Below are positions 5,653 to 64,000 of a stretch of 64,000 nt of DNA, piece after piece. Source of the DNA: a virus (taxonomy: Duplodnaviria > Caudoviricetes); the IMG/VR virus record IMGVR_UViG_3300014208_000026, positions 64,001 through 128,000 of that record; one strand, written 5' to 3'. Position numbers and translations under genes: made by a program. Every line of letters begins with the position of its first letter. The stretch's first letter is position 1. The notes under the pieces are model-generated. The model was not told where the DNA came from and did not search any database. It saw nothing but the letters and a program-made list of their open reading frames with translations.

Positions 5653-7811
5653 TGAAACCTAAGAGTGCAAAGTCCAATCTGCCGTTTGACACGACTCCGT
5701 CCCTCGGCTCCAACTACGGCCTGGATGGTTTCGATTTCGACCTGGAGTATGGCGAGGGTGTGAAGGATAAGGCTTCTCTCCCCTCTGCCAGGGGCCTGTC
5801 TGGTTTGCCTGACGGGGTTGTCATGGGCAAGCCAAATATCGAGAAGTTTCCCGTAGGAGTTGTTCGGGCCTCGGAAGGCAACTTCGATTTGACAGCGTTC
5901 ATGTCTGAGCCTCAGTTGAATGACCTGGACTGGTTGGAGTTTGCTGAGCAAGACCTGGAGCGCCTTCCGGAGAATCCCATTCATATTATCCCCGAGTTGG
6001 TCGACGCTTGGGGGGTTGAACGGCGTACTGACGGTGTGAACAAGCGTCTCCCTTACCAGACCAAGGAAGCCATTGATCAGGCCCGTCCCAAGGTTGCCAA
6101 GCCTGGAAAGACGGCCAGCGAGATCAAGGACGTTGTCCGGCAGGCTATGCGCCGGTCCGCTTACGGTGAGCCTCTGGACAAGATTCTGAGAGAAGCGGCT
6201 CTGGCCCTCGGCCCCGATGCTGAGAAGGCCAAGACGGCTATGGCGGCTCTCAGGGCGGAACACGGCTTGGTTGGCAAGGTTCATATTCGAGCCTCGGTGT
6301 TCCCTGGGTGTTGGAACGGTCGTTTTGCGGAAGAGATTCGGAAGTACGCCTCGCAGGCTAAGTACGTGGTTGCGTCTCCTCATTGTGCGGGTTGCGTTCA
6401 CGCCCAGAACAACCACTGCGCGATTTTCAAGAAGGAGATCGTGGTCGACGTTCCGTGGGAACAGGCTCGTACTGCCTATGCCCCTCGTTTGGCGGCGGCT
6501 GGTCAAAAGGTCGCTTCGGACGGCAATGCAAAAGAGGCTTTGAAGGCCGCTCTCACTTCTACCCCCCGTAAGATGCAGTCCTCGCTTGGCCAGATTTTCC
6601 CGACCATCAAGACGGCAACTGGTGTGACCCCCGAAGAGGCTTTTGCTAAGCTGGCTTCCCTTTCCGCTCCGGTCCAGGAGAAGATCGGTATTGCAGACAA
6701 GCAGGCGGCTGAAGAACGAAAGCAAGTGCAGGTCCAGATTGCCAAGTGGCATAGGGCCGGTTTGCTCCCGAGTAAGGAAGAAGCTACTCGGCTGGTGAGA
6801 TCCTCGGCGGACCCCAGGAGTATTCTGAAGGCCGGAGCTGCTTTGATTTTAGCTTCCAAGGCCACTTCGTACAGCGGGTCGGGGATTGTAGTCGACACGG
6901 GAAAGACCGCTTCGCGTGGTCTGGCTTGGAGGGAGTTGGAGCGGGCGGAGAAGGCCAAGAAGGCAATCAAGGCCCGTGTAGAGAGCGATGCTTCCGAAGC
7001 CCTCGGGAAGATGGTCAAGGCCGGACTCCTGAAGGATGAAGAAGTTCGTCGAATCGTCGCCAAGCAGTTGCCCCCCGACGAACAAATGCGGTTGGCTACG
7101 GCTGTTGTGGCTCGCAGGGCTTCCACGGTAGCCCTCCCGCAGAAGACCAAGGCTGCGGCTGACTACACCGGAGCCGGAGAAAGGGCTCTGCCCGCTCGTG
7201 TGGCAGTCCCGAAACCGGCGGCATTCTCCTCACAGCATATTGCCAAGGTCGTGTCTGAGGCAAAGCGGTTGATGAACGCCGGACACGCTGGAAAGATGCT
7301 CGATGGGCTGCTGAAGGTTCATTTCTCCGGTGGTTTGCTGAAGGCGGCTTCGGTAGCGCTCAAGGAAGCCCGGGACGCCCACGAAGGTCTGGCCGGTCAC
7401 GTTTACGTGGATGCTTCCGTTTATGCTTCCCAGCGGGGGACTACAGGCTGCGACGCGGGGGCACTCCTGCATCGTACCAAGGGCACCAAGTTCCTGTTGG
7501 CTATGGATCGGTGCAACGGTTGCACGGCCCACAACGTAGAGGGCGTGTGCCAGAGGTACGGGAAGCAAGTAACCGCTTCAGTTCCCGTGGAGAACCCGAA
7601 GGGGTTTCAGCGGGAAATGATTCGGTTGGCTAACATTTCGGATTCGGAACGAACGGCTGAGTTGTTTGTGACGGACGGCGGGCAGGTTCTCGCTGAGTTC
7701 GGCGGGCTGTCGAACGCCCCCCTGGACGATATCGACCTGGATACCGCCCCGTCGTCCAAGGACCTCGGAGAGATTTTGTTCGGCGGACTCGATGCAGGGA
7801 GTGACGAATGA
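5652..7811 (+). CDS. Large hypothetical protein with a duplicated Cys-containing domain
   Basis: EHGLVGKVHIRASVF..CAGC..NNHC and AHEGLAGHVYVDASVY..CNGC..EGVC; translationally coupled to both neighbours. Confidence 0.75.
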   Translation: MKPKSAKSNLPFDTTPSLGSNYGLDGFDFDLEYGEGVKDKASLPSARGLSGLPDGVVMGKPNIEKFPVGVVRASEGNFDLTAFMSEPQLNDLDWLEFAEQDLERLPENPIHIIPELVDAWGVERRTDGVNKRLPYQTKEAIDQARPKVAKPGKTASEIKDVVRQAMRRSAYGEPLDKILREAALALGPDAEKAKTAMAALRAEHGLVGKVHIRASVFPGCWNGRFAEEIRKYASQAKYVVASPHCAGCVHAQNNHCAIFKKEIVVDVPWEQARTAYAPRLAAAGQKVASDGNAKEALKAALTSTPRKMQSSLGQIFPTIKTATGVTPEEAFAKLASLSAPVQEKIGIADKQAAEERKQVQVQIAKWHRAGLLPSKEEATRLVRSSADPRSILKAGAALILASKATSYSGSGIVVDTGKTASRGLAWRELERAEKAKKAIKARVESDASEALGKMVKAGLLKDEEVRRIVAKQLPPDEQMRLATAVVARRASTVALPQKTKAAADYTGAGERALPARVAVPKPAAFSSQHIAKVVSEAKRLMNAGHAGKMLDGLLKVHFSGGLLKAASVALKEARDAHEGLAGHVYVDASVYASQRGTTGCDAGALLHRTKGTKFLLAMDRCNGCTAHNVEGVCQRYGKQVTASVPVENPKGFQREMIRLANISDSERTAELFVTDGGQVLAEFGGLSNAPLDDIDLDTAPSSKDLGEILFGGLDAGSDE

Positions 7812-39160: not shown

Positions 39161-42100
39161 ATGGCTTTCCTGAAGTTCGCAAATGCACGAATCATCACGC
39201 CGGACCTTGGTGGTCAGGCGGGGTGGAAAAAAGTGCGTACCGCGGCTAAGAAAGCTGACGTGTCCCCCGACCTTTTGGAGCAGGCCAGCGGTATTCTCGG
39301 GAAGCCTTTCAATCCCGATGACTACCTGCTGACTCACTGCACCATCGTTTCGAGCGTCGACGTGGAGCCTGTTCCTGGGGCCAAGATCGGTAAGATCAAG
39401 GAGAACGGCTTTACTGTCAATCGTATCTACGGTGACTACAGGATCACTGAAGACACTTTGGAGCAGATCAACGCGAACAAGGATGCATGGGCCCGTGGTG
39501 TCATTCTGAAGTCCTACCAGACGTTCAGGGGTGGCCAGAATTTCTGTTTTGCTCCTGGCACTGAAGTTCTGATGGCTGACGGAACTTACCGTCCTATCGA
39601 GAAGGTAGTGGCAGGGGACGAAGTGATCACGCATACGGGTGAGGCTCATAAGGTCACTCAGACTTTTGTTAGGGATTTCGAAGGCCCGATTCAGGCTCTC
39701 TACGTAGACCGATTCAAGGATCCTCTTCTCGTTACGGGAAATCATCCGTTCAGAGCCATTTCTGTCACAGCTTCTCAGTTGACCTCTTACTCTGGAGCTA
39801 AGCTTTCTAGTCAGGTTCGCTATCGAAGAGATCAGATAGTAGACTCCCTTCGGGATGGAGAGGGTCATTTTGGTAAGGCGTTTCCGGCAGTCCGCGAGAT
39901 CAAAACTCTCCTGGCTAAAAGCGCTATGCTAGCCGGGGACATTGCAGAAGCGATGGGCCATAAGAGAACTTATTCTTCTGTCATCATTCAGAGAGTTCTA
40001 AAGCGGCACACAGACCAGTTTTTTTCCCGTCCTTTGCTTGTTTCAGAGTATCCGTCTTTACAGAAGGGGCGGTGGTGCAGTCGAGTGTGGGCTGTTAGAG
40101 AAGACGCCCCTGATTTGCCGGATACTGACGTGAAGGCAGACAAAGATTGGGTAGCTGCTGAGCATTTCAAAGCCGGGGATTTCATTCTCGGCCCAGAGCA
40201 AAAGTTAGGGCAGATATCCGAACCTGAGAAGGCCACTCTTCTTGGTTATTACCTTGCAGAAGGGTGCCGTCTTGATCCTCATAAGGATTATGGGGTGTGT
40301 TTGGTTTTCGGGGCACATGAGCGAAATCTCGTAGAGCATGCTGCGAAGCTGGCTGAAGGGTGTTTCCCGGGAACTACGGCTCATATTCAGAATCCTAAAA
40401 ATGGGGCTTTGAGAGTAGATTTGCGCGGTTCTGAGATTTGTAAGTGGATGGTTCGAAACGGCGGCATTTATTCTGAATCAAAGCGTCTCCATCCGGACGT
40501 TTTCTCTTGGGACAGAGAATCTCTTTTGAGAATGTTTGCCGCGTGGATGGCTGGAGACGGGGATCATCACAAAGGAACCTTACGTCTTCGTGGAGTTTCC
40601 GTGTCTCATGAGCTTGCACAGCAAATGCACAGAGTTGCTGAGTTGTGTGGGATAAAATCTTCTGTTGTTTTTACGCGCCAAAAAATTGGCGAGGTTTGTA
40701 GTCAAGTGACAATGGTTATTGGGGGTGAGCCTCGCGTTTTCAACGTGATTCCTCGGCACCACGTGTGGACTGTTTTGGTATCTAAAGACTCCACTCCTGA
40801 AGTTACTTGCCGGAATATTCGGTGGGGGGTTCCTCTACACGTTGTTGAAGATGTGCACAAACGTCAGGAGTTTGCTTGGTGGGGTGGTTGCAGGGTTCAT
40901 AGGGTAGATTCTAATGAGTCTATCCCCTATAAAGGTAAAGTGCATAATATAGAGGTTGAGGAAGATCATTCCTATGTAGTCGATTATGGTATTGCGGTAC
41001 ATAATTGTGAGCACATACAAATCACGGAACTTTCCAAGGGCCGCATCATCGATGCCGTAGCCCGTGACGTTGGGAATTCGATTTACGTGGATATCCTGAT
41101 TGCTACGGACAGGAAGCACACGGACCTCATTCGGGATATCAAGTCGGGTAAGATGGGCACCCTCTCAATGGGTTGTTTCCTCCCCGGGACTCAGGTGTCT
41201 CTGGCTGACGGTAGTCGTGTAGCAATCGAAAACGTGCAGGCTGGAGACAAGGTTCTGACGCATAAGGGCCGTGCTCGCGAAGTGCTGAACAAGCAGGTTC
41301 GTGAGGGCGTGTGGAACATCCGGCGTATTCAGGTAGCCGGGGTTTCGGCTGTGATCACTGCAACGGACAATCACCCCTTCTACGTGCTTCGTGACGAGTG
41401 GGAGTGGATTCGGGCCGACGAACTTCAGGCAGGAGATCTCCTGTGTGTTCCTGTGGGGGATCAGACCGCTTCTGTTGTTCTTTCTATTGAGTCTGGTACC
41501 TACGAAGGTCCTGTCCATAACATGGAAGTGGCGGAGGACAACTCCTATGTTGTGGAGGGAGTCGCTGTTCACAACTGCACGACCGATTTTACTATCTGCA
41601 CCAAGTGCGGGCACGTCGCTGTCGACGATACTGACCTCTGCAGCCACATTAAATACGAGAAGGGCAACACCTTCTATTACCCCGATGGGAAGAAAGGTAT
41701 TGTTGCAGAGTTATGTGGGCATTCTTCAATCGATCCGACCGGAGGCGTCTATTTCATCGAAGCCTCTTGGGTTGGTAAGCCCGCATTCCTTGGCGCTGTG
41801 CTCCGTAACATCATCGAGGCCAGGGAAGTGTCGCCCTCTACCCGTAAGAAGGCTATGGAGGTTCTCTCCTCCCTGCCCCCGCAGTGGACTACGAATGGCC
41901 GTAAGAAGGCCGCCAGCATGTACCTCAGTGCTTTCGACGACGGGATGGATGAAGGGACCGAAGAGGCTCCGGCTGAATCCGAAGGAGCCCCTGCAGAGTC
42001 CGAAGGAGCCGCGTCTCCCTGGTCCGATCTCGAAGACAAGATGGTCCAGAAGATTCTCCAGAACGTCGAGAAGAAGCTGTCCGACCAGCTAGGTCCGGAC

Positions 42101-42475
42101 GGTAAGTCTGTGCCTTCTGCTCAGTCTGAGACGGCCCCGAACAACAACATCATCAAGCAGGCTGTCAAGAAGACGGCGGCTCAGTTCTACAACAACACTC
42201 TCTCCGCCATGCTCCGTACCGCTTCTTCGGATGCGGATCTCATGGATCGTGTGGCTGCATTGAATACTGCGTTCGGGATTTCCATCCCCGTGCCTCTGTA
42301 TCGTGCGGCTTTGAAATTCAGCGGTAGGAATACCACGCTGAAGGGTTATGTCGCCTCGTGCGAACGTGCTTTAGGCAGAAAGGTCGAAGCCGGGGAGGCC
42401 AAGACTTTAGTGCGTTTGGGGAAACTGCTGGAGCAGTTCTCCAATAAAACGGCAGCGAAACAGCAATCACGGTAG
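39161..42475 (+). CDS. Prohead (capsid maturation) protease, HK97/assemblin-like, with two inteins (483 aa after splicing)
   Basis: Spliced exteins read QNF-CEH..SKGRIIDA..LSMG-CTTD..FIEASWVGKPAFLGA (His, Ser and E.S.V..PA motifs); directly upstream of scaffold and capsid genes. Confidence 0.75.
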   Translation: MAFLKFANARIITPDLGGQAGWKKVRTAAKKADVSPDLLEQASGILGKPFNPDDYLLTHCTIVSSVDVEPVPGAKIGKIKENGFTVNRIYGDYRITEDTLEQINANKDAWARGVILKSYQTFRGGQNFCFAPGTEVLMADGTYRPIEKVVAGDEVITHTGEAHKVTQTFVRDFEGPIQALYVDRFKDPLLVTGNHPFRAISVTASQLTSYSGAKLSSQVRYRRDQIVDSLRDGEGHFGKAFPAVREIKTLLAKSAMLAGDIAEAMGHKRTYSSVIIQRVLKRHTDQFFSRPLLVSEYPSLQKGRWCSRVWAVREDAPDLPDTDVKADKDWVAAEHFKAGDFILGPEQKLGQISEPEKATLLGYYLAEGCRLDPHKDYGVCLVFGAHERNLVEHAAKLAEGCFPGTTAHIQNPKNGALRVDLRGSEICKWMVRNGGIYSESKRLHPDVFSWDRESLLRMFAAWMAGDGDHHKGTLRLRGVSVSHELAQQMHRVAELCGIKSSVVFTRQKIGEVCSQVTMVIGGEPRVFNVIPRHHVWTVLVSKDSTPEVTCRNIRWGVPLHVVEDVHKRQEFAWWGGCRVHRVDSNESIPYKGKVHNIEVEEDHSYVVDYGIAVHNCEHIQITELSKGRIIDAVARDVGNSIYVDILIATDRKHTDLIRDIKSGKMGTLSMGCFLPGTQVSLADGSRVAIENVQAGDKVLTHKGRAREVLNKQVREGVWNIRRIQVAGVSAVITATDNHPFYVLRDEWEWIRADELQAGDLLCVPVGDQTASVVLSIESGTYEGPVHNMEVAEDNSYVVEGVAVHNCTTDFTICTKCGHVAVDDTDLCSHIKYEKGNTFYYPDGKKGIVAELCGHSSIDPTGGVYFIEASWVGKPAFLGAVLRNIIEAREVSPSTRKKAMEVLSSLPPQWTTNGRKKAASMYLSAFDDGMDEGTEEAPAESEGAPAESEGAASPWSDLEDKMVQKILQNVEKKLSDQLGPDGKSVPSAQSETAPNNNIIKQAVKKTAAQFYNNTLSAMLRTASSDADLMDRVAALNTAFGISIPVPLYRAALKFSGRNTTLKGYVASCERALGRKVEAGEAKTLVRLGKLLEQFSNKTAAKQQSR
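39545..41005 (+). mobile_element. Intein 1 with LAGLIDADG endonuclease (487 aa)
   Basis: CFAPGTEV..VTGNHPF..LLGYYLAEG..FAAWMAGDG..HNIEV..GIAVHN; +1 residue is Cys. Confidence 0.92.
41174..41575 (+). mobile_element. Mini-intein 2 (134 aa)
   Basis: CFLPGTQV..ATDNHPF..HNMEV..GVAVHN; +1 residue is Cys. Confidence 0.92.
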
Positions 42476-45722: not shown

Positions 45723-45974
45723 TGTCTGAAATAGGGACTCGCTATCCGGGCCTGTTCTTCAAAATCCCCTCATAGCATTTTCCGGTAGATGTTTGTTTAG
45801 ATCCCGATCCGTGCGGGCAGGTTTTAAGCCAGAGCCTCTCAAGGGTCCGGTCTTATTTGTTATCGGATGTTGAACTTTTTTCTGTTGCCCTGCCCCGCTA
45901 TAGAGTATAGTTATAACGGAACAGGAAACCGTCGGTGCCAGTTCAGCCGAGCCCGACCAGGAAAAGGAGTTCAC

Positions 45975-48900
45975 ATGAAGTTGACCCCCGAAATTCTCAA
46001 GGACCTGTATCTGGTGCAGTTGAAAACGGAGACTGAAATTGCCGGTATGTTCGGAACTTCCCAAGTCCAAGTTGGGCGCCTTCGTAAGAAGTGGGGCATA
46101 CCGACTTTGGGTAAGACAGGACGCCTGGAAAAATTGCTGCCTCCAGTTCTAACTTCCGAACAGGAAGAGGTTCTAATAGGGTCTCTGTTAGGGGATGGTT
46201 GTCTTAAAGGTATTTCGGAAAAGACGGCTCTGTACACGGAGACTCACGGACCTTCCCAATACGCCTATCTCGATTGGAAAGCCGAAATATTAGGTCCTTT
46301 TGCTCTAAGTGTTTATCCGACGATGAAAAGAGTAGGGGATAAAGAGTTTCCAGGTAGAGGCTTTACTACGCATGCTAGCACTGTTCTCAGGCCCTATTAC
46401 GATATGTTCTATCCTGCTCCGTCCCGTAAAAAGGTTTTTCCGGTTGATCTCTCCAAGAGGTTGACCCCTCTGGCTCTGGCAGTTTGGTATATGGACGACG
46501 GAAGTCTGGCAGGCACACACACTGCACGAATAGCTTTCGGACTGGACCCTTTAAGTCTGGAAAGGGCTTTACAGGCGCTACGTGATTTAGGGTTCAATCC
46601 TGTAGCCTACGGTAAAAAGGGCAATCAGGCTATTTGGCTCACGGGGGATACTCATCTGTTTTTGGACTTGACCGGCAAATACGTCTCAGAGCACATGCCT
46701 CAAAAGCTACCCTGTTGGACGGAAAGGCAGAAAGGAGATTTGAATGCCGAGAAATTAACACCGGAGCTGGCGGCTGAATTGTATTCTGGAAACTCTACAG
46801 TTGAGGATATTGCTGAAAAGTTCGGTGTCGGTACAAGCACCGTGAAACGCCGTTTGCGGGATGCTGAAACTCCGATGAGACGGTCTGGCCCACGTGATGC
46901 AGAGCCGGGGGATACTGCCATGCAGCCCCTTAGAGTTAAACCGAGTTTTCAGGAATGCGGGGTGGTTTTACCATGCCCTGACTACAACGGCCCTATAGAC
47001 AAGAGCAATTATCAGTGGGCAAAGAAAGCCGGATTGACTCCAGATACTCTACGGGTGATATATGCTAAGTACGGTGATGAAGAGATAGCTGAGCTATTCG
47101 GGGTTTCAGGTGTAGCCGTTGGAGTTCAGCGTAAGAAATGGGGCATTGAAAGTATCAGTGCCAGACAAAGAAGAGACAAGGTGGAACGCAAGGGTTTGCC
47201 CTCGCTCGACAACCTCACGCCTGAAGGGTTGAAGGTTCTTTCCAAAACTATGGGGGACCAGAAGATCGCTGCTATGCACGGAGTACAAAAGCCTGCGGTT
47301 TCTCGACTGAGGGAGCAGTGGGATATAGCGGCAACGTCTAAGTCTGAACGGGCCACTTCTGAAACGATACTGACGGATGAACAGAAAGAAGCCTGTATTG
47401 GAACACTTCTAGGGGACGCTCATCTTACAGAAAGCGGTAGCTTGAGAGTTTCGCACAGCCACGATCAGATCGGGTATCTGAAAGCTTTACGCGCTATTCT
47501 GGTTCCTTACGCTAGACCGATTCATTATTCTGAGTCTAGTATGCCTAGTGGCCAAGTGTGTTTCACTTTCGGTTTCAAGACGGTTCAGCATATGTGGTTG
47601 AAAGAACTCCGTAACATCTTCTATCCAGAGCCGGAAAAGGTGAAAGTATTCCCAGAGAGTATTATCCGCACTTTAACACCCCTATCACTGGCATACTGGT
47701 ATTTCGATGACGGTCACTGGGGTGATGTTCTATATATAGCCTTGGGTCCCATCTCAGATTATGAAAAAGAGTACATTCCAGTTTGGCTGAAAGACCGTTT
47801 TGGCTTTGACTCCTACATAAAGGGGAAACCCAACTGTCGACTGCTGTTCATTCGTGGGGCTTCTCATGAGATTTTCTTCAATCTGATCCGAAACTACGCC
47901 ATTCCAGATATGCTGTACAAGTTCCCGCCGAAGTACCGTCCTGCGGGTATTCTTCCCATCCACCCCGTTAGGACAACGCCGCAAATCAAGATCCCTCCCG
48001 ATCTGCTGGAGGGTTGTGAGGACTGGCTCTCTAAGACCTCTGTACAGCAAGAACAGACAGTCGATGATCTGTGCGGTTTCTGGCGGAGCCAGGGTTTCCC
48101 CCACTGTGAAATCCGCCCCGAGGAGCTGATTACTCTTTTGGAAGTTACTCCGGATCAGATAATCCATGAAGGTGTGATTCGACCCCGACAAGTCGGGCAA
48201 TCCCTTTGTCATGCTTTCATGCCTCATATCTGGAAGGCCCGTTCCAGGAGCAGTGAGCAAAGTCCTTTCGACCTATTCTCTGATGACACTACGCTCAAGG
48301 GAGCTTTGCGGTATCTGTTGGAGAAAGGCAGTAAGCCAACGGCTGCGGGATTGCGCGGGGCTCTTCGTTACTGGAGGTACTCAGGAGTTTACAATTTCCG
48401 GCCCTCCGCAGCTAAGGCTTTGGTGGACACCTATTGCGTTCCTGGAGGCACAGTGTGGGATCCCTGCGCTGGTTACGGCGGGCGTCTCTTGGGTACTTTG
48501 CTGTCCAGGAACTCCCCGAAGTACATTGCTTGCGAACCACAGTCTGAGACCTTCTGCCGACTGCAAGAGTTGGCAGGCTGGTTAGAGAAGTATCTCCCTG
48601 ACATTTCTTCCCGAGTGCAGTTGAACCACGTTCCCGCTGAGGAGTTCAAGTTGCCCGAGTACGTCGACATGGTTTTCACTTCTCCGCCGTACTGGCAGCA
48701 GGAGGTTTACGGAGAGGAAGAGACCCAATCTGGGATTCGGTACAAGACCTATGAGGCGTGGTTAGAGGGCTTCTGGAAGCCCGTGCTTCGACAGGCGGTA
48801 GCAAAGCTGAAAGCTGGTGGCTGGTTGGTTTTGAACGTCGACACTTTCGTTGCCAACCACAAGACCTATGACCTGCCTGGGGACACGATCGCTATCTGCA

Positions 48901-49667
48901 AATCGTTCGGGTTCGACAGGGAGCCGGAGACGTTGCGTTATGCTATGAACGGGGACAATTACGAATCAGTATTGTGTTGGAAGAAAGCGGTGGCTGTGGT
49001 TGAGGATTCTGTTCCCGTTCCCATTCCGTCGGTTCCGAATCAAGTGATTGTTTCCCGTTGTGAAAACTGCGGGATTACGGTTCCTATTGGTGGGATCAAG
49101 GACGGTAAGTGCCCTGAGTGCCGTGTTCCAGGAGGGCACCGGACGTGCTGTAAGGGCTGTGGCGAAGTGTTCCAAGCCGTTCGAAAGGACCGAGAGTTCT
49201 GCGATGAAGCTTGTAGGGCTCGTTGGCGTCGCAGAGAATTCCGCAAAGTCCATCCAGCCAAGACCACCCGCACCTTCACATGCCAGTTCTGTGGCAAGAA
49301 GTGGGAGTCCTCGGAACTTGGATCGCCAAACAAGTGTACCGAGTGTAAGGCCGCCAAGGAACTCGCGAGCCGAACCAAGGTCTGCCAGTACCGTCATTGC
49401 GGCCAGACTTTCGTCGACACGTCGGAAAAGAACAGCATGAGTTACTGTCACGTGGAACACCGCCGCAGAGAGAAGCTTCTTCGTTCCGGAATGGCCCCTG
49501 ATCTGAGCTATTTCACGAAGCCGGATCCCGTGCTCGACACGGCTACTCCTGCAATGCCCGCAAGCACTGACAGCCCGACAAGTCAGCCCAGCGTGTCTGA
49601 CTTGTTTGGCATGCCTCCCCGCTCGGACCCTAAGATCCACAGTTCTGATTCCGACTACTCCATTTAG
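45975..49667 (+). CDS. Fusion protein: two LAGLIDADG endonuclease-like domains with HTHs, an amino-DNA methyltransferase and C-terminal zinc fingers
   Basis: LIGSLLGDG..LAVWYMDDG and CIGTLLGDA..LAYWYFDDG; VWDPCAGYGGR (motif I); FTSPPY (motif IV); many CxxC. Start at ATG 45975 after AAGGAG. Confidence 0.8.
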   Translation: MKLTPEILKDLYLVQLKTETEIAGMFGTSQVQVGRLRKKWGIPTLGKTGRLEKLLPPVLTSEQEEVLIGSLLGDGCLKGISEKTALYTETHGPSQYAYLDWKAEILGPFALSVYPTMKRVGDKEFPGRGFTTHASTVLRPYYDMFYPAPSRKKVFPVDLSKRLTPLALAVWYMDDGSLAGTHTARIAFGLDPLSLERALQALRDLGFNPVAYGKKGNQAIWLTGDTHLFLDLTGKYVSEHMPQKLPCWTERQKGDLNAEKLTPELAAELYSGNSTVEDIAEKFGVGTSTVKRRLRDAETPMRRSGPRDAEPGDTAMQPLRVKPSFQECGVVLPCPDYNGPIDKSNYQWAKKAGLTPDTLRVIYAKYGDEEIAELFGVSGVAVGVQRKKWGIESISARQRRDKVERKGLPSLDNLTPEGLKVLSKTMGDQKIAAMHGVQKPAVSRLREQWDIAATSKSERATSETILTDEQKEACIGTLLGDAHLTESGSLRVSHSHDQIGYLKALRAILVPYARPIHYSESSMPSGQVCFTFGFKTVQHMWLKELRNIFYPEPEKVKVFPESIIRTLTPLSLAYWYFDDGHWGDVLYIALGPISDYEKEYIPVWLKDRFGFDSYIKGKPNCRLLFIRGASHEIFFNLIRNYAIPDMLYKFPPKYRPAGILPIHPVRTTPQIKIPPDLLEGCEDWLSKTSVQQEQTVDDLCGFWRSQGFPHCEIRPEELITLLEVTPDQIIHEGVIRPRQVGQSLCHAFMPHIWKARSRSSEQSPFDLFSDDTTLKGALRYLLEKGSKPTAAGLRGALRYWRYSGVYNFRPSAAKALVDTYCVPGGTVWDPCAGYGGRLLGTLLSRNSPKYIACEPQSETFCRLQELAGWLEKYLPDISSRVQLNHVPAEEFKLPEYVDMVFTSPPYWQQEVYGEEETQSGIRYKTYEAWLEGFWKPVLRQAVAKLKAGGWLVLNVDTFVANHKTYDLPGDTIAICKSFGFDREPETLRYAMNGDNYESVLCWKKAVAVVEDSVPVPIPSVPNQVIVSRCENCGITVPIGGIKDGKCPECRVPGGHRTCCKGCGEVFQAVRKDREFCDEACRARWRRREFRKVHPAKTTRTFTCQFCGKKWESSELGSPNKCTECKAAKELASRTKVCQYRHCGQTFVDTSEKNSMSYCHVEHRRREKLLRSGMAPDLSYFTKPDPVLDTATPAMPASTDSPTSQPSVSDLFGMPPRSDPKIHSSDSDYSI

Positions 49668-59433: not shown

Positions 59434-60264
59434 ATGACCATTCAGCAGCTCTTTGGTTCTAATCCCGATTCCATCGGAGTCCGTTTACAGGAATCCTCCG
59501 AGCTTCTCGATTCCCTTCCGGATGCTTCTGTCCAGTTGATCGTGACGGATCCTCCGTACGGAATTTCCTACCAGTCGAACTACTGCAAAGCCGGAAAAAG
59601 AAAGCCGATATCGGCGGACTGGAATTTTCAGATCGGCCCGTTCCTCCGTTCTGCCGAGAGGGTTCTGAAACCAGGAGGGGCGATTTACCTGTTTAGTAGA
59701 TGGGACGTGTATCCTCTCTGGACCCTGAATATGCCCGCAGAACTGAAGCTGAAGAACGTGATCGCCTGGGTGAAGGATAACCACTCGGCGGGGGACTTGA
59801 CGGGGAACTTCGGGTTCAAGTGGGAGGCTATCCTGTTCATGGTGAAGGGCAGGCACCAACTCAGAGGTACCCGTTGGCCTAACGCTTGGGAGTTCCCGAG
59901 AGTTCCTTTTGCACGACAGATTCATCCAGCAGAGAAACCCGTGGCTCTACTGGAGAGGGCCATTACAGCTTCATCAGACGTAGGGGATATGGTGGTCGAC
60001 CCATTCTGCGGGTCGGGCTCTACAGGAGCGGCGGCTTGCAACCTAGGCCGTAAAGCAATCCTGGGGGACGTAGACGCCGATTACGTGCGGAGGGCTAGGG
60101 AGAGGTTGGGGTTGCCTGTTGAGCAGGTGGAGACGGAGAAAGAGATCCCTAAGGATCCGAATTGGGGCAAGGGCTCTATCGGGGTCTGTACGGATGCCCT
60201 TGAAGGTGTTCATCCTGAAGACGTGGCGGCTCTGGTCGAGTGGTTCCGGTCGACGAGGGCCTAA
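59434..60264 (+). CDS. DNA amino-methyltransferase (N4-C/N6-A, beta order)
   Basis: VTDPPYG (motif IV) precedes HPAEKP and VDPFCGSG (motif I). Confidence 0.9.
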   Translation: MTIQQLFGSNPDSIGVRLQESSELLDSLPDASVQLIVTDPPYGISYQSNYCKAGKRKPISADWNFQIGPFLRSAERVLKPGGAIYLFSRWDVYPLWTLNMPAELKLKNVIAWVKDNHSAGDLTGNFGFKWEAILFMVKGRHQLRGTRWPNAWEFPRVPFARQIHPAEKPVALLERAITASSDVGDMVVDPFCGSGSTGAAACNLGRKAILGDVDADYVRRARERLGLPVEQVETEKEIPKDPNWGKGSIGVCTDALEGVHPEDVAALVEWFRSTRA

Positions 60265-60293
60265 GTCTGTCTGACTCCTTTCACGTTTTTCAT

Positions 60294-60315
60294 CCTCTAG
60301 AATCGGTACAGTAGA
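60294..60315 (+). promoter_or_regulatory. Putative late promoter also containing GGTACAGTAG
   Basis: CCTCTAG-AATCGGTACA-GTAG. Confidence 0.45.
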
Positions 60316-60365
60316 GAACACGGATTCTTAGCGGAGTCCTGTTTAGACTAAGGGAGTGAGGCACC

Positions 60366-61145
60366 ATGGGCGTAATTTTTTCGCAGGGAGACATTTTGGG
60401 CCGTGGGGACCTGGATGCGTTTTTCCAAAATTCTCTCGGGAATCCCCAGAATTTATTCGAGATCACCTATGCCATCTACTACGTGACCCCCGTCACCGAG
60501 GTAGAGGTTCTCATTGGTTCTGCCGCCCGTGTCCCCGTGAATCCCGCCGTGGGGGAATACTACGCGGCTCTCCAGGTTCCCGCCAGTGCCGCCGCTGGGG
60601 ATTACCGTATCCGGTGGACGTTCAGGGAGTTCGCAGGAGCACCCCAGCAGTTGATCGTCCAGGAGTGGGGGGTTGTGCTGGCAGGTACCACTACGGGGAC
60701 GAGTACGTTTTCTACGGGTGAAACAGAGATGATCTGGAAGTTGAGAGTATTTTTAAGAGATTCCAACCCAGATCGCAACTACCATTTCAGACCACCTGAA
60801 GCAGAAGGCTCGGTCGGCCAGTACAATCAAGTGTTCGGGCAGATATGGGAAGATGATGAGTTGCTTATGTATCTCGAAGCAGCTCTCGACTGGTTCAACA
60901 TGTTCCCGCCCGAGACAGAAGCATACAGCACGCTTGACCTGCTGTTACAAAGAAAGCCTGTCTGGCGAACTGCTATCATAACAGGTGCAATTGCACATGC
61001 TTGTACAGCATTAGCATTAAATTGGATCTCGGACGAATTTTCCGTGGAAGAGAATACTAATATAAAAGTACATTTAGATAGTGATTATTCGTTAGCTATT
61101 CCGATTGGGGAGCTATGGGATATTATTTATGGAGATACTAAATGA
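60366..61145 (+). CDS. N-terminal half of a fractured putative neck/head-tail adaptor: N-extein plus 34-aa N-intein
   Basis: Ig-like start, then KLRVFLRD..WEDDELLMYL..NWISDEF followed by SVEENTNIKV (intein block A). Confidence 0.7.
   Translation: MGVIFSQGDILGRGDLDAFFQNSLGNPQNLFEITYAIYYVTPVTEVEVLIGSAARVPVNPAVGEYYAALQVPASAAAGDYRIRWTFREFAGAPQQLIVQEWGVVLAGTTTGTSTFSTGETEMIWKLRVFLRDSNPDRNYHFRPPEAEGSVGQYNQVFGQIWEDDELLMYLEAALDWFNMFPPETEAYSTLDLLLQRKPVWRTAIITGAIAHACTALALNWISDEFSVEENTNIKVHLDSDYSLAIPIGELWDIIYGDTK
61041..61142 (+). mobile_element. Split intein N-fragment (34 aa, Ser1)
   Basis: SVEENTNIKVHLDSDYSLAIPIGELWD resembles intein block A plus the 'I.EL' motif; stop codon follows. Confidence 0.65.
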
Positions 61146-62149
61146 ATAAAAAGCAAGCTCTTTCAGTATTGAAAATGAATTTCAAATTACTTGAGACTCT
61201 TATAGAGGAGGGCATTCTTGCCTGTGATTCTTCTGGAGACATAGATCCGGAGTCTTTTGTTTGTCTTGAAGAAAACTTCCATTTTGTGTTCTGTTTAGAG
61301 TGCGGGGCTAGGGTGGCTCTTCTGAACGGTAAGCATCTTAAAAGCTGTTCAGGCATGACACAGGCTGCTTATTTAGAGAAACATCCAGGGGCCGCTGTGC
61401 TGTCGGGCATGTCCGCCGCATTCAAAACCAAGACCGAAGACCAGAAACGGGCTCAGTCCGAAAAGCTCAAGGCCAGATTCCAAACTCCCGAGGGGGAGGT
61501 TACTCGACAGCAGATTTCAGAAGCCTCAAAGAAAATGCAGGCGTCAGAATACGGGGAGATAGCTGCTGAGCACCTTCGAACAATGACCCGCAGTCCTGAA
61601 GGGCGTGCTCGTATTAGTAAGCAAATGTTTGCACGGTACGCTTCTGGGTGGAATCCTGTAAAAGACTGGCATGCTGCAAACAAAGAGGAGTCTAAGCAGA
61701 GGGCTTTTCATGCCAGGAGCTTTATCCAGAAAAAGAAATCAAAGCCTCATCTCGCTTTCAAAGCTGCGATGGAAGAAGCAGGGTTATTGGGTTTCGAGAC
61801 TGAGTGTCCTGTGGGGTATTACCACATAGATGAAGCTCGGCCCGATCTTAAGTTGTCCGTGGAAATTGATGGATGTTTCTGGCATGGTTGTGTAGATTGT
61901 GGTTTTCCAGGAACTCCTGGAATAAAGAAAACAGATAAGCGGAAAACGACTTTTCTGCTTAATAGAGGATGGACGATACTCCGCTTCAACGTGTGCGTCA
62001 TTAAAAAAGACTTGGCCGGTTGTCTAGATAAAGTAAGGCAGAGCGTGGAATCCTTGTCACAGCAGAAAACCACTCTCAAAGTACGTGCTACAATCTGCGA
62101 CATTTTCGGAGCCCATAAAGAGGAGGTGTCCAATGGCACTAAGCCCTGA
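61142..62149 (+). mobile_element. Free-standing Vsr/DUF559-like homing endonuclease between the split-intein halves
   Basis: CLECG..GKHLK.C zinc finger; YHIDEA..SVEIDGCFWHGC..DKRK..NRGWTILRF. Confidence 0.8.
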
Positions 62150-62546
62150 AGTCAGAAAGGCCATTCGAGAAGCCTATGAGGCAGGTACCCTGCAAGTTGA
62201 TTCCGTCGACGCCGCTACCGGTAAGGTGTTCCGTGCTGTAGTTGCGGACGTTCTGCGGCACCGGACTCCCCATAAGCCTCTTGTCAGAGTAGAGGTTGAT
62301 ACGGGGCAGTGGGTCGAGTGTACTAAGGACCATAGCCTGTTTGGCAGGGATGCTGAGGGGCAGATTGTTCCGGTAGAAGCTGGAACCTTGCAGCCTGGGG
62401 CTTCGATTGTGGTGGTGAAGGACGGGCAGGCGGTAGACGTCCAGGTGATTTCCTATGAGGAAGGCGCACCCGCGGAATTTACCTTTGACTTGGCCGTTCC
62501 GGGGCCGGAGAACTTTGTACTCTCCAACGGTATTTTGGCTCACAAC
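62133..62546 (+). mobile_element. Split intein C-fragment (blocks B, F, G; ends HN, +1 Ser)
   Basis: Carries TxxH and terminal HN but lacks block A, which is encoded at 61041. Confidence 0.85.
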
Positions 62547-62774
62547 TCCTATTCGTGTGGTGGAATATCATTAGACCTAGAGAAGTCATCTAAGTATGAA
62601 TCAATCAAACAGAACGCTGAGAGTCAATTTGATAAGGCTACGGAAGCTAAAGCTAGAACAACAAAGTATGTTAGAGGATTAAAACAACAACGTTTCGGAA
62701 TGGGTGTGCGCAGTTCCTTTGGTCCGGCAACAGGTCATGGTATATTATCACCCCGCTCGTTTACGGGCGGTTAG
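62133..62774 (+). CDS. C-terminal half of the fractured gene: 138-aa C-intein plus 75-aa C-extein
   Basis: RBS AGGAGG then ATG 62133; block B ECTKDHSLF; FTFDLAVPGPENFVLSNGILAHN then SYSCGGISLDLEKSSKY. Confidence 0.85.
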   Translation: MALSPEVRKAIREAYEAGTLQVDSVDAATGKVFRAVVADVLRHRTPHKPLVRVEVDTGQWVECTKDHSLFGRDAEGQIVPVEAGTLQPGASIVVVKDGQAVDVQVISYEEGAPAEFTFDLAVPGPENFVLSNGILAHNSYSCGGISLDLEKSSKYESIKQNAESQFDKATEAKARTTKYVRGLKQQRFGMGVRSSFGPATGHGILSPRSFTGG

Positions 62775-62861
62775 TAGTAAAAATCAATAGTATAGAGTAG
62801 ACTCCGGTAGGGGTGTGTTAGATGTGTGCAATCAAAGCTGGTACTATATTTTCAATTTTTC

Positions 62862-62882
62862 CCCATAGCCCTTTCTAAGTAG
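62862..62882 (+). promoter_or_regulatory. Putative late promoter
   Basis: T-tract then CCCATAG-N10-GTAG. Confidence 0.35.
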
Positions 62883-63072
62883 AAACCACGGCGTCTGCGC
62901 GAACAGACCCGGGGCGTGACCGACAACCCTGAGAAGGGGGCTACTGATGTTCCCTTCTACCGGAAAAAATCTGCCCCCATGCCGAATCTACTTTGTTCTA
63001 TCGGGTATACTTAAGAGGCACCCTCTCGAACGAGGGTCTCTGACGCCACAAACAAGTTCGGCGAGGTGAGTC

Positions 63073-63849
63073 ATGCCTGTTACGTGCCCTTACTGTTCCA
63101 GAGAATTTTCAGGGGACAAGCTTAGTGCAAGGCATCTTTCTATATGCGATCCTTCGTGCCGTATTCCGATATTCCCCTGTCTCTGCGGACACGAAGCTAC
63201 AAGCAATACCCAAATGAAACGGCACCACAAAGTCTGTCCTGTTTGGCAGGCTCGTGATGTCGAGGCTGTCAAAAGAGCCCGTATGCGTGAAACGAGTTTG
63301 GCCCGTTACGGGGTAGAGAACGCGAATCAGACAGAGGAGGCTCTGGCCAAGAGGGCGCGTACCAATCTGGAGAGATATGGCGCAGAGAACCCTTTTTGTC
63401 GGGAGTCTTCTCTTTTTGAAGAGGTTCAGATTGGTTCTAAGGAAAACAGAGTTTATGCCACAGGGGAAGATTGCGTGTTCTCCCGTCCGGAAGTGAAAGA
63501 GAAGATTCGGAACTACTGGCAAGAGAACCATGGTGTTGTTGGGCCCCAGCAGGTTCCTGAGATTCGAGAGGCTACGCGACAGACGAACCTGGAACGTTAT
63601 GGTACGGAAGAGGTTCTGGCCGCTCCCGAAATCCGTCAGAGGATTCGAGATACTTGTGAGGCTGTTTATGGCGGCCCTGCTCCTTCGTGCAGTCCGGAGG
63701 TGATAGCGAAGCAGCTAGAAACTAAGCTGTCTCGTTGTGAAGTGCCTTGGGCGGAGGACTTGCTTGTGTCTGATACTCCGCCCGTTGAATCGGTATCTGC
63801 CCCAACCATCCTCGATCTCTTCTCCTCTTCTAAGAACCCTGCCAAGTAG
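63073..63849 (+). CDS. Zinc finger plus (L/W)xxYGxEN repeat protein (homing-endonuclease-associated DNA-binding repeats); no nuclease domain seen
   Basis: CPYC..HL..C; LARYGVEN, LERYGAEN, WQENHGVV, LERYGTEE, EAVYGGP. Confidence 0.6.
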   Translation: MPVTCPYCSREFSGDKLSARHLSICDPSCRIPIFPCLCGHEATSNTQMKRHHKVCPVWQARDVEAVKRARMRETSLARYGVENANQTEEALAKRARTNLERYGAENPFCRESSLFEEVQIGSKENRVYATGEDCVFSRPEVKEKIRNYWQENHGVVGPQQVPEIREATRQTNLERYGTEEVLAAPEIRQRIRDTCEAVYGGPAPSCSPEVIAKQLETKLSRCEVPWAEDLLVSDTPPVESVSAPTILDLFSSSKNPAK

Positions 63850-64000
63850 ATAGGGCCCCGTCGACCCTTTCCATCTTTGCCGCACAGCCCGTTTGCTAAT
63901 TGCTTTTTGCAGAAAGGGCAGACAGCCACAGCCTCCGGCTCTGCATCTTCGTGCTTAGCACCTGACCTCAACCGGCTCTGCATCGTCGTGCTCAGCGCCC

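Follow-up and report, generated by a model that had tools for sequence, protein, structure and literature searches.

How can a phage obtain one virion protein from two genes that are kept apart by a third? This question is raised by a 64,000-nucleotide (nt) stretch of viral DNA (Duplodnaviria; Caudoviricetes; positions 64,001 to 128,000 of IMG/VR record IMGVR_UViG_3300014208_000026), designated the window hereafter, in which a huge phage probably encodes a head-to-tail adaptor (neck) protein as two genes with a selfish nuclease gene between them. The initial annotation of the window, made from its letters alone, had described three open reading frames (ORFs) at this place: one ending in a 34-amino-acid (aa) N-terminal intein fragment (IntN), a 335-aa endonuclease gene, and an ORF starting at 62133 that carries the C-terminal intein fragment (IntC). 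Reading of the sequence confirmed all three. The first ORF (60366-61145; 259 aa) comprises the N-terminal host segment (N-extein; 225 aa, ending NWISDEF) followed by the IntN, and its TGA stop codon overlaps the endonuclease start codon as ATGA at 61142-61145. The 3' end of the endonuclease gene in turn overlaps the third ORF by 17 nt. This ORF begins with the ATG at 62133, which is preceded at a distance of 6 nt by a GAGGAGG ribosome-binding site, and encodes a product of 213 aa, i.e. IntC plus the C-terminal host segment (C-extein). The predicted splice product would thus measure 225 + 75 = 300 aa. We consider it very likely that the locus is a "fractured gene", in which a class 1 mini-intein, itself cut in two, interrupts the adaptor gene past codon 225. 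The cut would be due to a free-standing Vsr/DUF559-like homing endonuclease gene residing in a loop approximately 34 residues past the first intein residue, Ser1. With the same high confidence we predict that the split intein of this adaptor-like virion gene is functional in trans-splicing.

The initial annotation had proposed to align the host segments with uninterrupted homologues, in which EF should directly precede SYS. A search with the 225-aa N-extein retrieved 729 homologues (56-65% identity among the matches listed), and the junction was readable in 118 of the best 120. In 105 of these 118 the protein is uninterrupted, measures approximately 298 aa and aligns without gaps across NW[VI]xDEF-[D/S/N/T]-YS-x-GG-[IV]-SL, i.e. 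the two segments join exactly at EF|xYS, which speaks against a match by chance. The other 13, comprising the window and twelve further N-fragments, end 31-37 residues past DEF, and the first added residue, straight after [DE]EF, is always Ser. The C-extein likewise aligns without gaps with the C-termini of the uninterrupted homologues. As these homologues read through the junction without a gap, the predicted splice product is collinear with the adaptor family.

The residue following the junction (+1; 62547-62549 in the window) covaries with the residue at +10 (62574-62576). All 94 intein-less alleles with Asp at +1 carry Ser, Asn or Thr at +10; where +1 is Ser, Asn or Thr, as in eleven intein-less alleles, +10 is Asp without exception. 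Position +1 is Ser or Thr in 61/61 intein-bearing junctions, although the search pattern would also accept Cys, and in 59 of these 61 alleles it is accompanied by Asp or Glu at +10. In the fold model of an uninterrupted homologue, described below, the strand ranges place the corresponding positions 226 and 235 opposite one another in a beta hairpin. Judging from the covariation and the model, the two members of the Asp/Ser pair appear to have changed places, thereby allowing a nucleophile at +1. The eleven intein-less alleles with the "intein-type" pair may be former or ready-made intein sites.

The motifs of the two halves agree with the claim of a natural, atypically split intein with serine at both nucleophilic positions (Ser1/Ser+1). 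IntC starts with a helix and contains Arg42-His43 (NX-type), block B T64-K-D66-H67 (TKDH), block F with D119 in FDLAVPGPENF, and block G H137-N138. Since residue 19 of IntC aligns with approximately residue 50 of solved class 1 mini-inteins, IntN supplies only the first strands and a helix (block A). By its sequence, the split is therefore atypical, a short IntN with block A only being combined with a long IntC that holds blocks B, F and G. A region-restricted search detected 28 IntC clusters, every one of which is attached to an adaptor C-extein. Among 26 IntC sequences sharing 41-58% identity with that of the window, columns H43, D66, H67, D119, H137 and N138 are invariant, the residue preceding H43 is Arg or Lys in most, albeit not all, members, and position +1 is occupied by Ser, in a few cases by Thr. 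Altogether the family comprises at least 30 diverged split alleles, the one in the window included.

The best solved match of the IntC profile is the Ser1 intein PI-PkoII (2cw7; E 6e-17), with the "rH" of the family aligned to "RH". Cys1 inteins carry Lys or Arg and no His at the position of the NX histidine. The Arg-His pair of IntC accordingly matches, as a sequence motif, the NX motif of cysteine-independent inteins, which has been described as the signature of Ser1/Ser+1(Thr+1) inteins (Pasch et al., PMC10189870). The intein is not altogether devoid of cysteine: the IntC of the window contains one, which is non-catalytic and located beside block B (VECTKDH), and other family members have Thr or Val instead. 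On these motifs, we classify the element as a class 1 intein with Ser1/Ser+1.

Pairing of the halves was addressed by modeling the complex of IntC with a peptide comprising 15 aa of the N-extein and the IntN, using three runs and three controls. The interface score (ipSAE, interaction prediction score from aligned errors) reached 0.73 as compared to 0.02 for the best control. Of 78 solved complexes, 51 pass the mark applied to call pairing, as do 2 of 108 mismatched pairs. At least 83% of the contacts were common to the runs, and the predicted local distance difference test (pLDDT) score of the partner was at least 68. The modeled interface is formed by the splice junction and residues 40-43, 61-67, 114-120 and 136-137. 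Hence, the model supports pairing; as many split inteins have been solved, however, such a pass shows likeness to them and does not prove binding of this copy.

These data suggest the following course of events. The three overlapping ORFs would be translated from a single message to yield the 259-aa N-extein-IntN protein, the 335-aa endonuclease and the 213-aa IntC-C-extein protein. The 34-aa IntN would dock on the 138-aa IntC and thereby complete the Hedgehog/intein (HINT) fold. Ser1 would then undergo an N-O acyl shift aided by the NX histidine His43 and by His67 of block B. Subsequently, attack by Ser+1 would generate a branched ester, Asn138 would cyclize, and an O-N shift would establish a normal peptide bond. 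The outcome would be a 300-aa adaptor reading ...WISDEF-SYSCGG..., made without cysteine chemistry.

Coordinates of the features are compiled in Table 1. The order of N-extein ORF, DUF559 nuclease gene and IntC ORF recurs in four independent metagenomic contigs (L008, L010, L011, L013). An assembly artefact was ruled out by this identical architecture in independent samples. A group I intron or another RNA element was likewise dismissed: no meaningful Rfam match was obtained for 59500-64000, and the flanking coding sequence encodes HINT motifs.

Table 1. Features of the split adaptor locus and its downstream neighbor; positions refer to the window.
Feature	Coordinates	Strand	Remarks
N-extein of head-to-tail adaptor-like protein	60366..61040	+	225 aa, C-terminal WISDEF
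IntN	61041..61145	+	34 aa from Ser1 (SVEENTNIKV...GDTK), block A only, then TGA stop
Free-standing endonuclease gene	61142..62149	+	335 aa, Pfam and PHROG matches
Ribosome-binding site GAGGAGG	62120..62126	+	inside 3' end of endonuclease gene, read from sequence
IntC	62133..62546	+	138 aa, ends ILAHN, Pfam Intein_splicing E 2.2e-12
C-extein	62547..62774	+	75 aa from Ser+1 (SYSCGGISLDLEKSSKY..., begins SYSCGGISLD), then stop
DUF7487 protein, truncated	63073..63849	+	258 aa, Pfam DUF7487 E 9e-20, phrog_3339 "homing endonuclease"

Which protein is interrupted? The initial annotation had pointed to a structural connector, and the fold agrees with this proposal. We modeled the closest uninterrupted homologue, P0004, from an alignment of 83 sequences (pLDDT 77). 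Residues 1-107 of the model adopt an immunoglobulin (Ig)/macroglobulin-like sandwich, followed by a helical domain (residues 116-285) that includes a beta hairpin at 225-236. The N-extein spans the Ig/macroglobulin-like domain and the start of the helical adaptor domain, and the intein is located in the first strand of the hairpin. In an exhaustive structural search (VIA-align) with residues 116-285, the helical domain matched adaptor and neck proteins of phage Pa223 (9nwi_A; Z 11.2, root mean square deviation 4.4, 115 residues aligned), cyanophage A4 (9k09_d; Z 10.6) and SU10 (7z47_A; Z 10.3), as well as 7wmp_m (Z 9.9) and T4 gp13/gp14 (9lu4_D; Z 9.5). Further adaptor or neck matches were KHP30, GP4, VP1, the neck of phage 812 and the P1 connector. 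The Z values are moderate for a helical domain, yet every protein matched by this domain serves the same kind of function. A homologue from the jumbo Tunturiibacter phage Tunturi_5 (28% identity) carries the annotation "head-tail connector", from which a putative location between portal and tail is taken. Together, the data make it probable that the host is a head-to-tail adaptor (neck)-like virion protein. The adaptor fold surfaced in this wide VIA-align search alone. PHROGs contained no family for the N-extein ORF or the IntC ORF, and Pfam gave nothing meaningful for the N-extein. Foldseek detected nothing below E 1e-3 in the PDB, where the Ig-like N-domain alone matched, to unrelated proteins. 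Matches in BFVD were mostly unnamed phage proteins, gp165 of Bacillus phage G among them, and a scan of IMG/VR with the IntC ORF retrieved uninterrupted adaptor genes only, through the C-extein.

The protein encoded between the halves has the features of a Vsr-like endonuclease, as had been claimed. Pfam assigns DUF559 above its cut-off (E 7.7e-5; 23.0 bits, cut-off 20.6) and a Ros/MucR zinc finger (E 1e-4), whereas the Vsr match is weak. The zinc finger occupies approximately aa 48-81 and the PD-(D/E)xK-derived nuclease core of the Vsr/DUF559 type aa 217-302, the latter with the motifs IDEA.PD, VEIDGCFWHGC and TDKRK. Seven homologues have the motifs IDEA.PD, VE[IV]DGC[YFW][WY]H.C..CG and DK.K..YL..RGW in common, and the endonuclease of the window retains every column that is invariant in the seven when aligned. 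These motifs correspond to the Asp and Phe-Trp-His signature of Vsr, which Dassa et al. described for the Vsr-like family (PMC2677866). The best solved match of the seven-sequence profile is the nuclease domain of I-Bth0305I (3r3p), albeit a weak one (E 0.006, 56 residues), followed by a DUF559 protein; a single-sequence phmmer search with the endonuclease against solved structures returned nothing relevant.

How did the intein come to be split? A profile search of 1.84 billion representative proteins revealed additional states of this element. Contiguous mini-inteins reside at the same DEF|S site in full-length adaptors of 456-495 aa (P0165, P0170, P0173, P0175, P0179, P0212, P0278). Related inteins occupy two further sites of the adaptor, RDQ|[CS]PDRNY and NPDRNY|[ST]FRPP, and one protein (P0156) carries two contiguous inteins. 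In P0181, P0192 and P0198 the endonuclease is fused in frame to IntC, i.e. an endonuclease domain sits at a non-canonical position of the intein. An adaptor gene fractured at the first of these two further sites, LLRDQ|C ... HN|CPDRDY, is found at 4118-6531 of L015 (LR745208.1, a 485-kb uncultured phage whose record is without annotation). Its intein is related and atypically split, with Cys1/Cys+1 and a 33-aa IntN, and a different, 351-aa nuclease-like ORF lies between the halves. Finally, L028 (3277-6204) harbors an adaptor gene in three pieces. Piece 1 consists of N-extein and IntN(a'); after a 44-nt spacer without an endonuclease gene, piece 2 comprises IntC(a'), a middle extein and IntN(b), and piece 3 is an in-frame endonuclease-IntC(b) fusion followed by the C-extein. 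As both of its split inteins are of the Ser1/Ser+1 type, this gene would need two trans-splicing reactions of that kind.

The direction of change is suggested by two alleles that share 92% DNA identity overall: L026 contains the contiguous form of the split intein of L011 and no endonuclease gene. Both are nearly identical just downstream of the IntC start (approximately codon 4), divergent in IntN, and unrelated where L011 has the endonuclease gene. The endonuclease gene is therefore regarded as an insertion into a resident mini-intein, with the boundary of similarity at the point of insertion, which suggests that it entered this intein and split it. (At approximately 430-450, L026 shows a one-base frame change before block F, representing either an assembly error or a dead copy.) Base composition in the window points the same way. 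With GC contents of 0.32 (0.24 at third codon positions) and 0.47, IntN and endonuclease gene look foreign, whereas IntC (0.56) resembles the genome (0.54). The start of the C-extein (~110 nt) is at 0.39. Transfer of the whole element in one step from a low-GC donor fails to account for this mosaic, since IntC has the composition of the genome itself, and the AT-rich start of the C-extein needs a separate event. Two AT-rich patches can be delimited, at 60960-61200 (N-extein end, IntN and endonuclease start; GC 0.27-0.43) and at 62547-62700 (the first ~150 nt of the C-extein; GC 0.37-0.43). The window's own genome contains no second copy of this IntC, and only distant relatives of the endonuclease.

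The same alleles bear on the role of the middle ORF. It could be a domesticated DNA-binding or nuclease protein serving the phage, the split being maintained as it regulates adaptor production. A Ros/MucR-type zinc finger is a regulator motif, the in-frame endonuclease-IntC fusions (P0181, P0192, P0198, L028) cause both products to be made together, and the match to known homing enzymes is as weak as E 0.006. However, near-identical alleles differ in whether they have the gene, the recombination boundary between them being sharp and falling precisely on the insertion point. Moreover, the gene is scattered over the host tree, the copy in L008 decays, and a Vsr-like gene in just this position is the defining feature of fractured genes (PMC2677866). 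We therefore regard domestication as very improbable and the endonuclease gene as selfish, based on its variable presence, scattered distribution and decaying copies. In the L008 case, the endonuclease gene (5780-6754) matches the family in two frames and is thus frameshifted, through decay or a sequencing error, while the intein halves are intact.

Several points weigh against a selfish endonuclease gene dividing an adaptor intein that still splices. Everything said about the splice product so far derives from sequence and models. Ser1/Ser+1 inteins are often slow, the half-life of PolB16 OarG being 20-150 min (PMC10189870), which appears ill suited to a protein required in large amounts at a late stage of infection. 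The mosaic base composition is unexplained by one simple transfer. Z-scores of approximately 10-11 were obtained for a mostly helical domain, and values below ~13 may reflect a common arrangement only. Finally, the endonuclease of the window reads FNVCV where six homologues have a WEHE-like motif, which makes its activity uncertain.

The first of these points also favors an alternative in which the intein halves no longer splice and the adaptor either works as a pair of chains that the intein halves hold together non-covalently or is encoded by a dying gene. There is a precedent among fragmented phage genes in nrdA, which is split by a mobile endonuclease and whose fragments assemble without splicing (PMC3045599). 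Furthermore, nuclease genes do decay here, as seen for the truncated DUF7487 gene of the window and the frameshifted endonuclease gene of L008. In contrast, all catalytic residues are present in the window and invariant across at least 26 IntC sequences, a conservation that is unexpected at 41-58% identity once splicing has been lost. In addition, Ser/Thr at +1 is kept together with the compensating +10 residue in nearly all intein-bearing alleles (59/61), the ORFs are intact, and IntC possesses its own ribosome-binding site. We consequently judge loss of splicing to be very improbable and infer that the two halves are joined.

We next turn to the spread of the element. In a maximum-likelihood tree of the N-extein the 13 split alleles are scattered, and well-supported branches force at least six gains or losses. 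The N-exteins of split allele P0079 (L011) and intein-less allele P0071 (L027) are 93% identical at the DNA level. Between these loci 17 mismatches, many of them synonymous, cluster from ~10 nt before to ~45 nt after the junction, while the next 90 nt contain a single mismatch. The pattern resembles that expected of either a short co-conversion tract or a target site that has been recoded and is immune to cleavage. The endonuclease, possibly together with the nuclease gene family represented by the downstream DUF7487 gene, would spread the element among related phages.

The DUF7487 gene is located directly downstream in 7/7 intein-bearing loci examined (window, L008, L010, L011, L013, L015, L026), and is absent from 11/11 intein-less loci (L001-L007, L021-L024). 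Full-length DUF7487 proteins measure 353-492 aa and carry a C-terminal Vsr-like nuclease domain (PD...E.xGDYWH...WE.E), which is related to the internal endonuclease (phmmer E 1e-6 to 1e-10). The copy in the window keeps the zinc-finger and repeat part and has lost this nuclease domain, no match to the missing part being detectable downstream of 63073-63849. The distribution raises the possibility that the downstream nuclease, rather than the internal one, moves the intein by cutting alleles that lack it, close to where it inserts ("collaborative homing"). In that case, only mini-inteins free of an endonuclease gene would be targeted by the internal endonuclease; splicing would proceed as outlined above, the driver being different. 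In line with this, the association includes L026, which has no internal endonuclease, full-length DUF7487 proteins end in the related nuclease domain, and the recoded tract lies on the C-extein side. However, the loci are few and not phylogenetically independent, L001-L007 being near copies of each other, L028 encodes its DUF7487 domain on the opposite strand in a fusion with Mom, and the copy in the window is without its nuclease domain. Collaborative homing has to our knowledge so far been described for introns, and we consider it rather unlikely as the driver at this locus.

Both nucleases could also act at different levels of a two-tier selfish system, which we put forward tentatively. In the first tier, the Vsr-like nuclease encoded just downstream would carry mini-inteins, inserted at three sites, between phages. 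In the second tier, another Vsr-like endonuclease gene would invade a non-canonical loop of such an intein, giving rise to an atypically split intein or an endonuclease-IntC fusion. Empty site, contiguous intein, split intein, fused form and three-piece gene are all seen across the contigs. If correct, this would be a natural record of how atypically split inteins arise, and would provide a set of presumably orthogonal cysteine-independent split inteins, with the three-piece gene needing two orthogonal serine-type reactions.

Elsewhere in the window, ORF 45867-49667 (1266 aa) matches the LAGLIDADG homing endonuclease family phrog_11023 (E 1e-43) as well as methyltransferase families, and ORF 39161-42475 (1104 aa) gives short matches of the type given by inteins.

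Cysteine-independent split inteins ligate proteins under oxidizing conditions and alongside thiol labeling. The literature consulted lists only a handful of them, all residing in PolB polymerases, and calls for more (PMC12707363, PMC10189870). In the adaptor intein family, dozens of natural variants are available from an unrelated host, and their IntN, at 31-37 aa, is short enough to be made by peptide synthesis. Whether insertion of an endonuclease gene creates split inteins can be tested directly, as near-identical alleles differ in having this gene and contiguous, split and fused forms occur at one site. Moreover, the locus suggests that a virion assembly protein, beyond replication enzymes, can depend on protein trans-splicing. 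To the specialist the principle will be unsurprising; the value lies in the size of the family, in the series of contiguous, split and fused forms, and in the demand for cysteine-independent split inteins.

How does this locus compare with known systems? Fractured genes were described by Dassa, London, Stoddard, Schueler-Furman and Pietrokovski in 2009 (PMC2677866). As in these, a split intein divides the host gene, a free-standing endonuclease gene lies between the halves on the same strand, and the source is a phage. A Vsr-like endonuclease is also encoded in about half of their loci. The 3' end of the endonuclease gene overlaps the IntC start (17 nt here, 6-69 nt in theirs); one of their terminase loci is also split such that the C-part holds every motif except N1. 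The hosts differ, however, being enzymes of DNA synthesis and repair and a terminase in their case and a virion adaptor here. In their loci, 27-51 nt of non-coding DNA with a hairpin or late promoter precede the endonuclease gene, whereas the adaptor locus has the ATGA overlap and no promoter-like site before this gene. The canonical split site is found in most of their inteins. The adaptor intein also shares its site with contiguous and endonuclease-fused relatives.

In chemistry and type of split, the closest precedent is PolB16 OarG (Pasch et al. 2023, PMC10189870), which is also naturally and atypically split, of metagenomic origin, and has Ser1/Ser+1, class 1 motifs and the NX histidine. 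Non-catalytic cysteines had to be replaced there, and one is present in the IntC of the window. In contrast to the adaptor intein with its 34-aa IntN (31-37 aa in the family) and 138-aa IntC, PolB16 OarG consists of an IntN of 15 aa and an IntC of 168 aa. Its host is a PolB polymerase instead of an adaptor, and its block B His is dispensable. Among solved chains the intein of the window has no detectable sequence match to PolB16 OarG.

AceL-TerL and GOS-TerL likewise combine a short N-fragment holding block A only with a long C-fragment, and stem from phage metagenomes. The host is a terminase, and the fragment lengths are 25 and 37 aa. GOS TerL is cited as a Ser1 intein, but has Cys at +1 and no NX histidine (PMC10189870). 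The cysteine-less split inteins Aes123 PolB1/CL, CP21 PolB1, LCGC14 PolB2 and GOM-OPS-1 PolB2 (PMC12707363, PMC11923092) share Ser1 with Ser or Thr at +1, i.e. oxyester chemistry, and an origin from phages or metagenomes; unlike the adaptor intein, all belong to PolB polymerases and show the typical split, with an IntN of 115-120 aa. The nuclease core of the internal endonuclease, which matches I-Bth0305I (PMC3239194, 3r3p) only weakly, has in common with it the E-x-(D/N)-G...W motif region and the DKRK...G(W/Y)xV(L/I) motif. I-Bth0305I is encoded in a group I intron, whereas the protein in the window carries a zinc finger like that of Ros/MucR and, around FWH, three Cys that are conserved.

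No description of an intein in a head-to-tail adaptor was found in the literature searched. The initial annotation had suggested novelty for both the structural host and the serine-only chemistry; the latter, like the type of split, has its precedent in PolB16 OarG, and the arrangement was known from fractured genes, while the host protein, the intein allele family and the intermediate IntN length are new.

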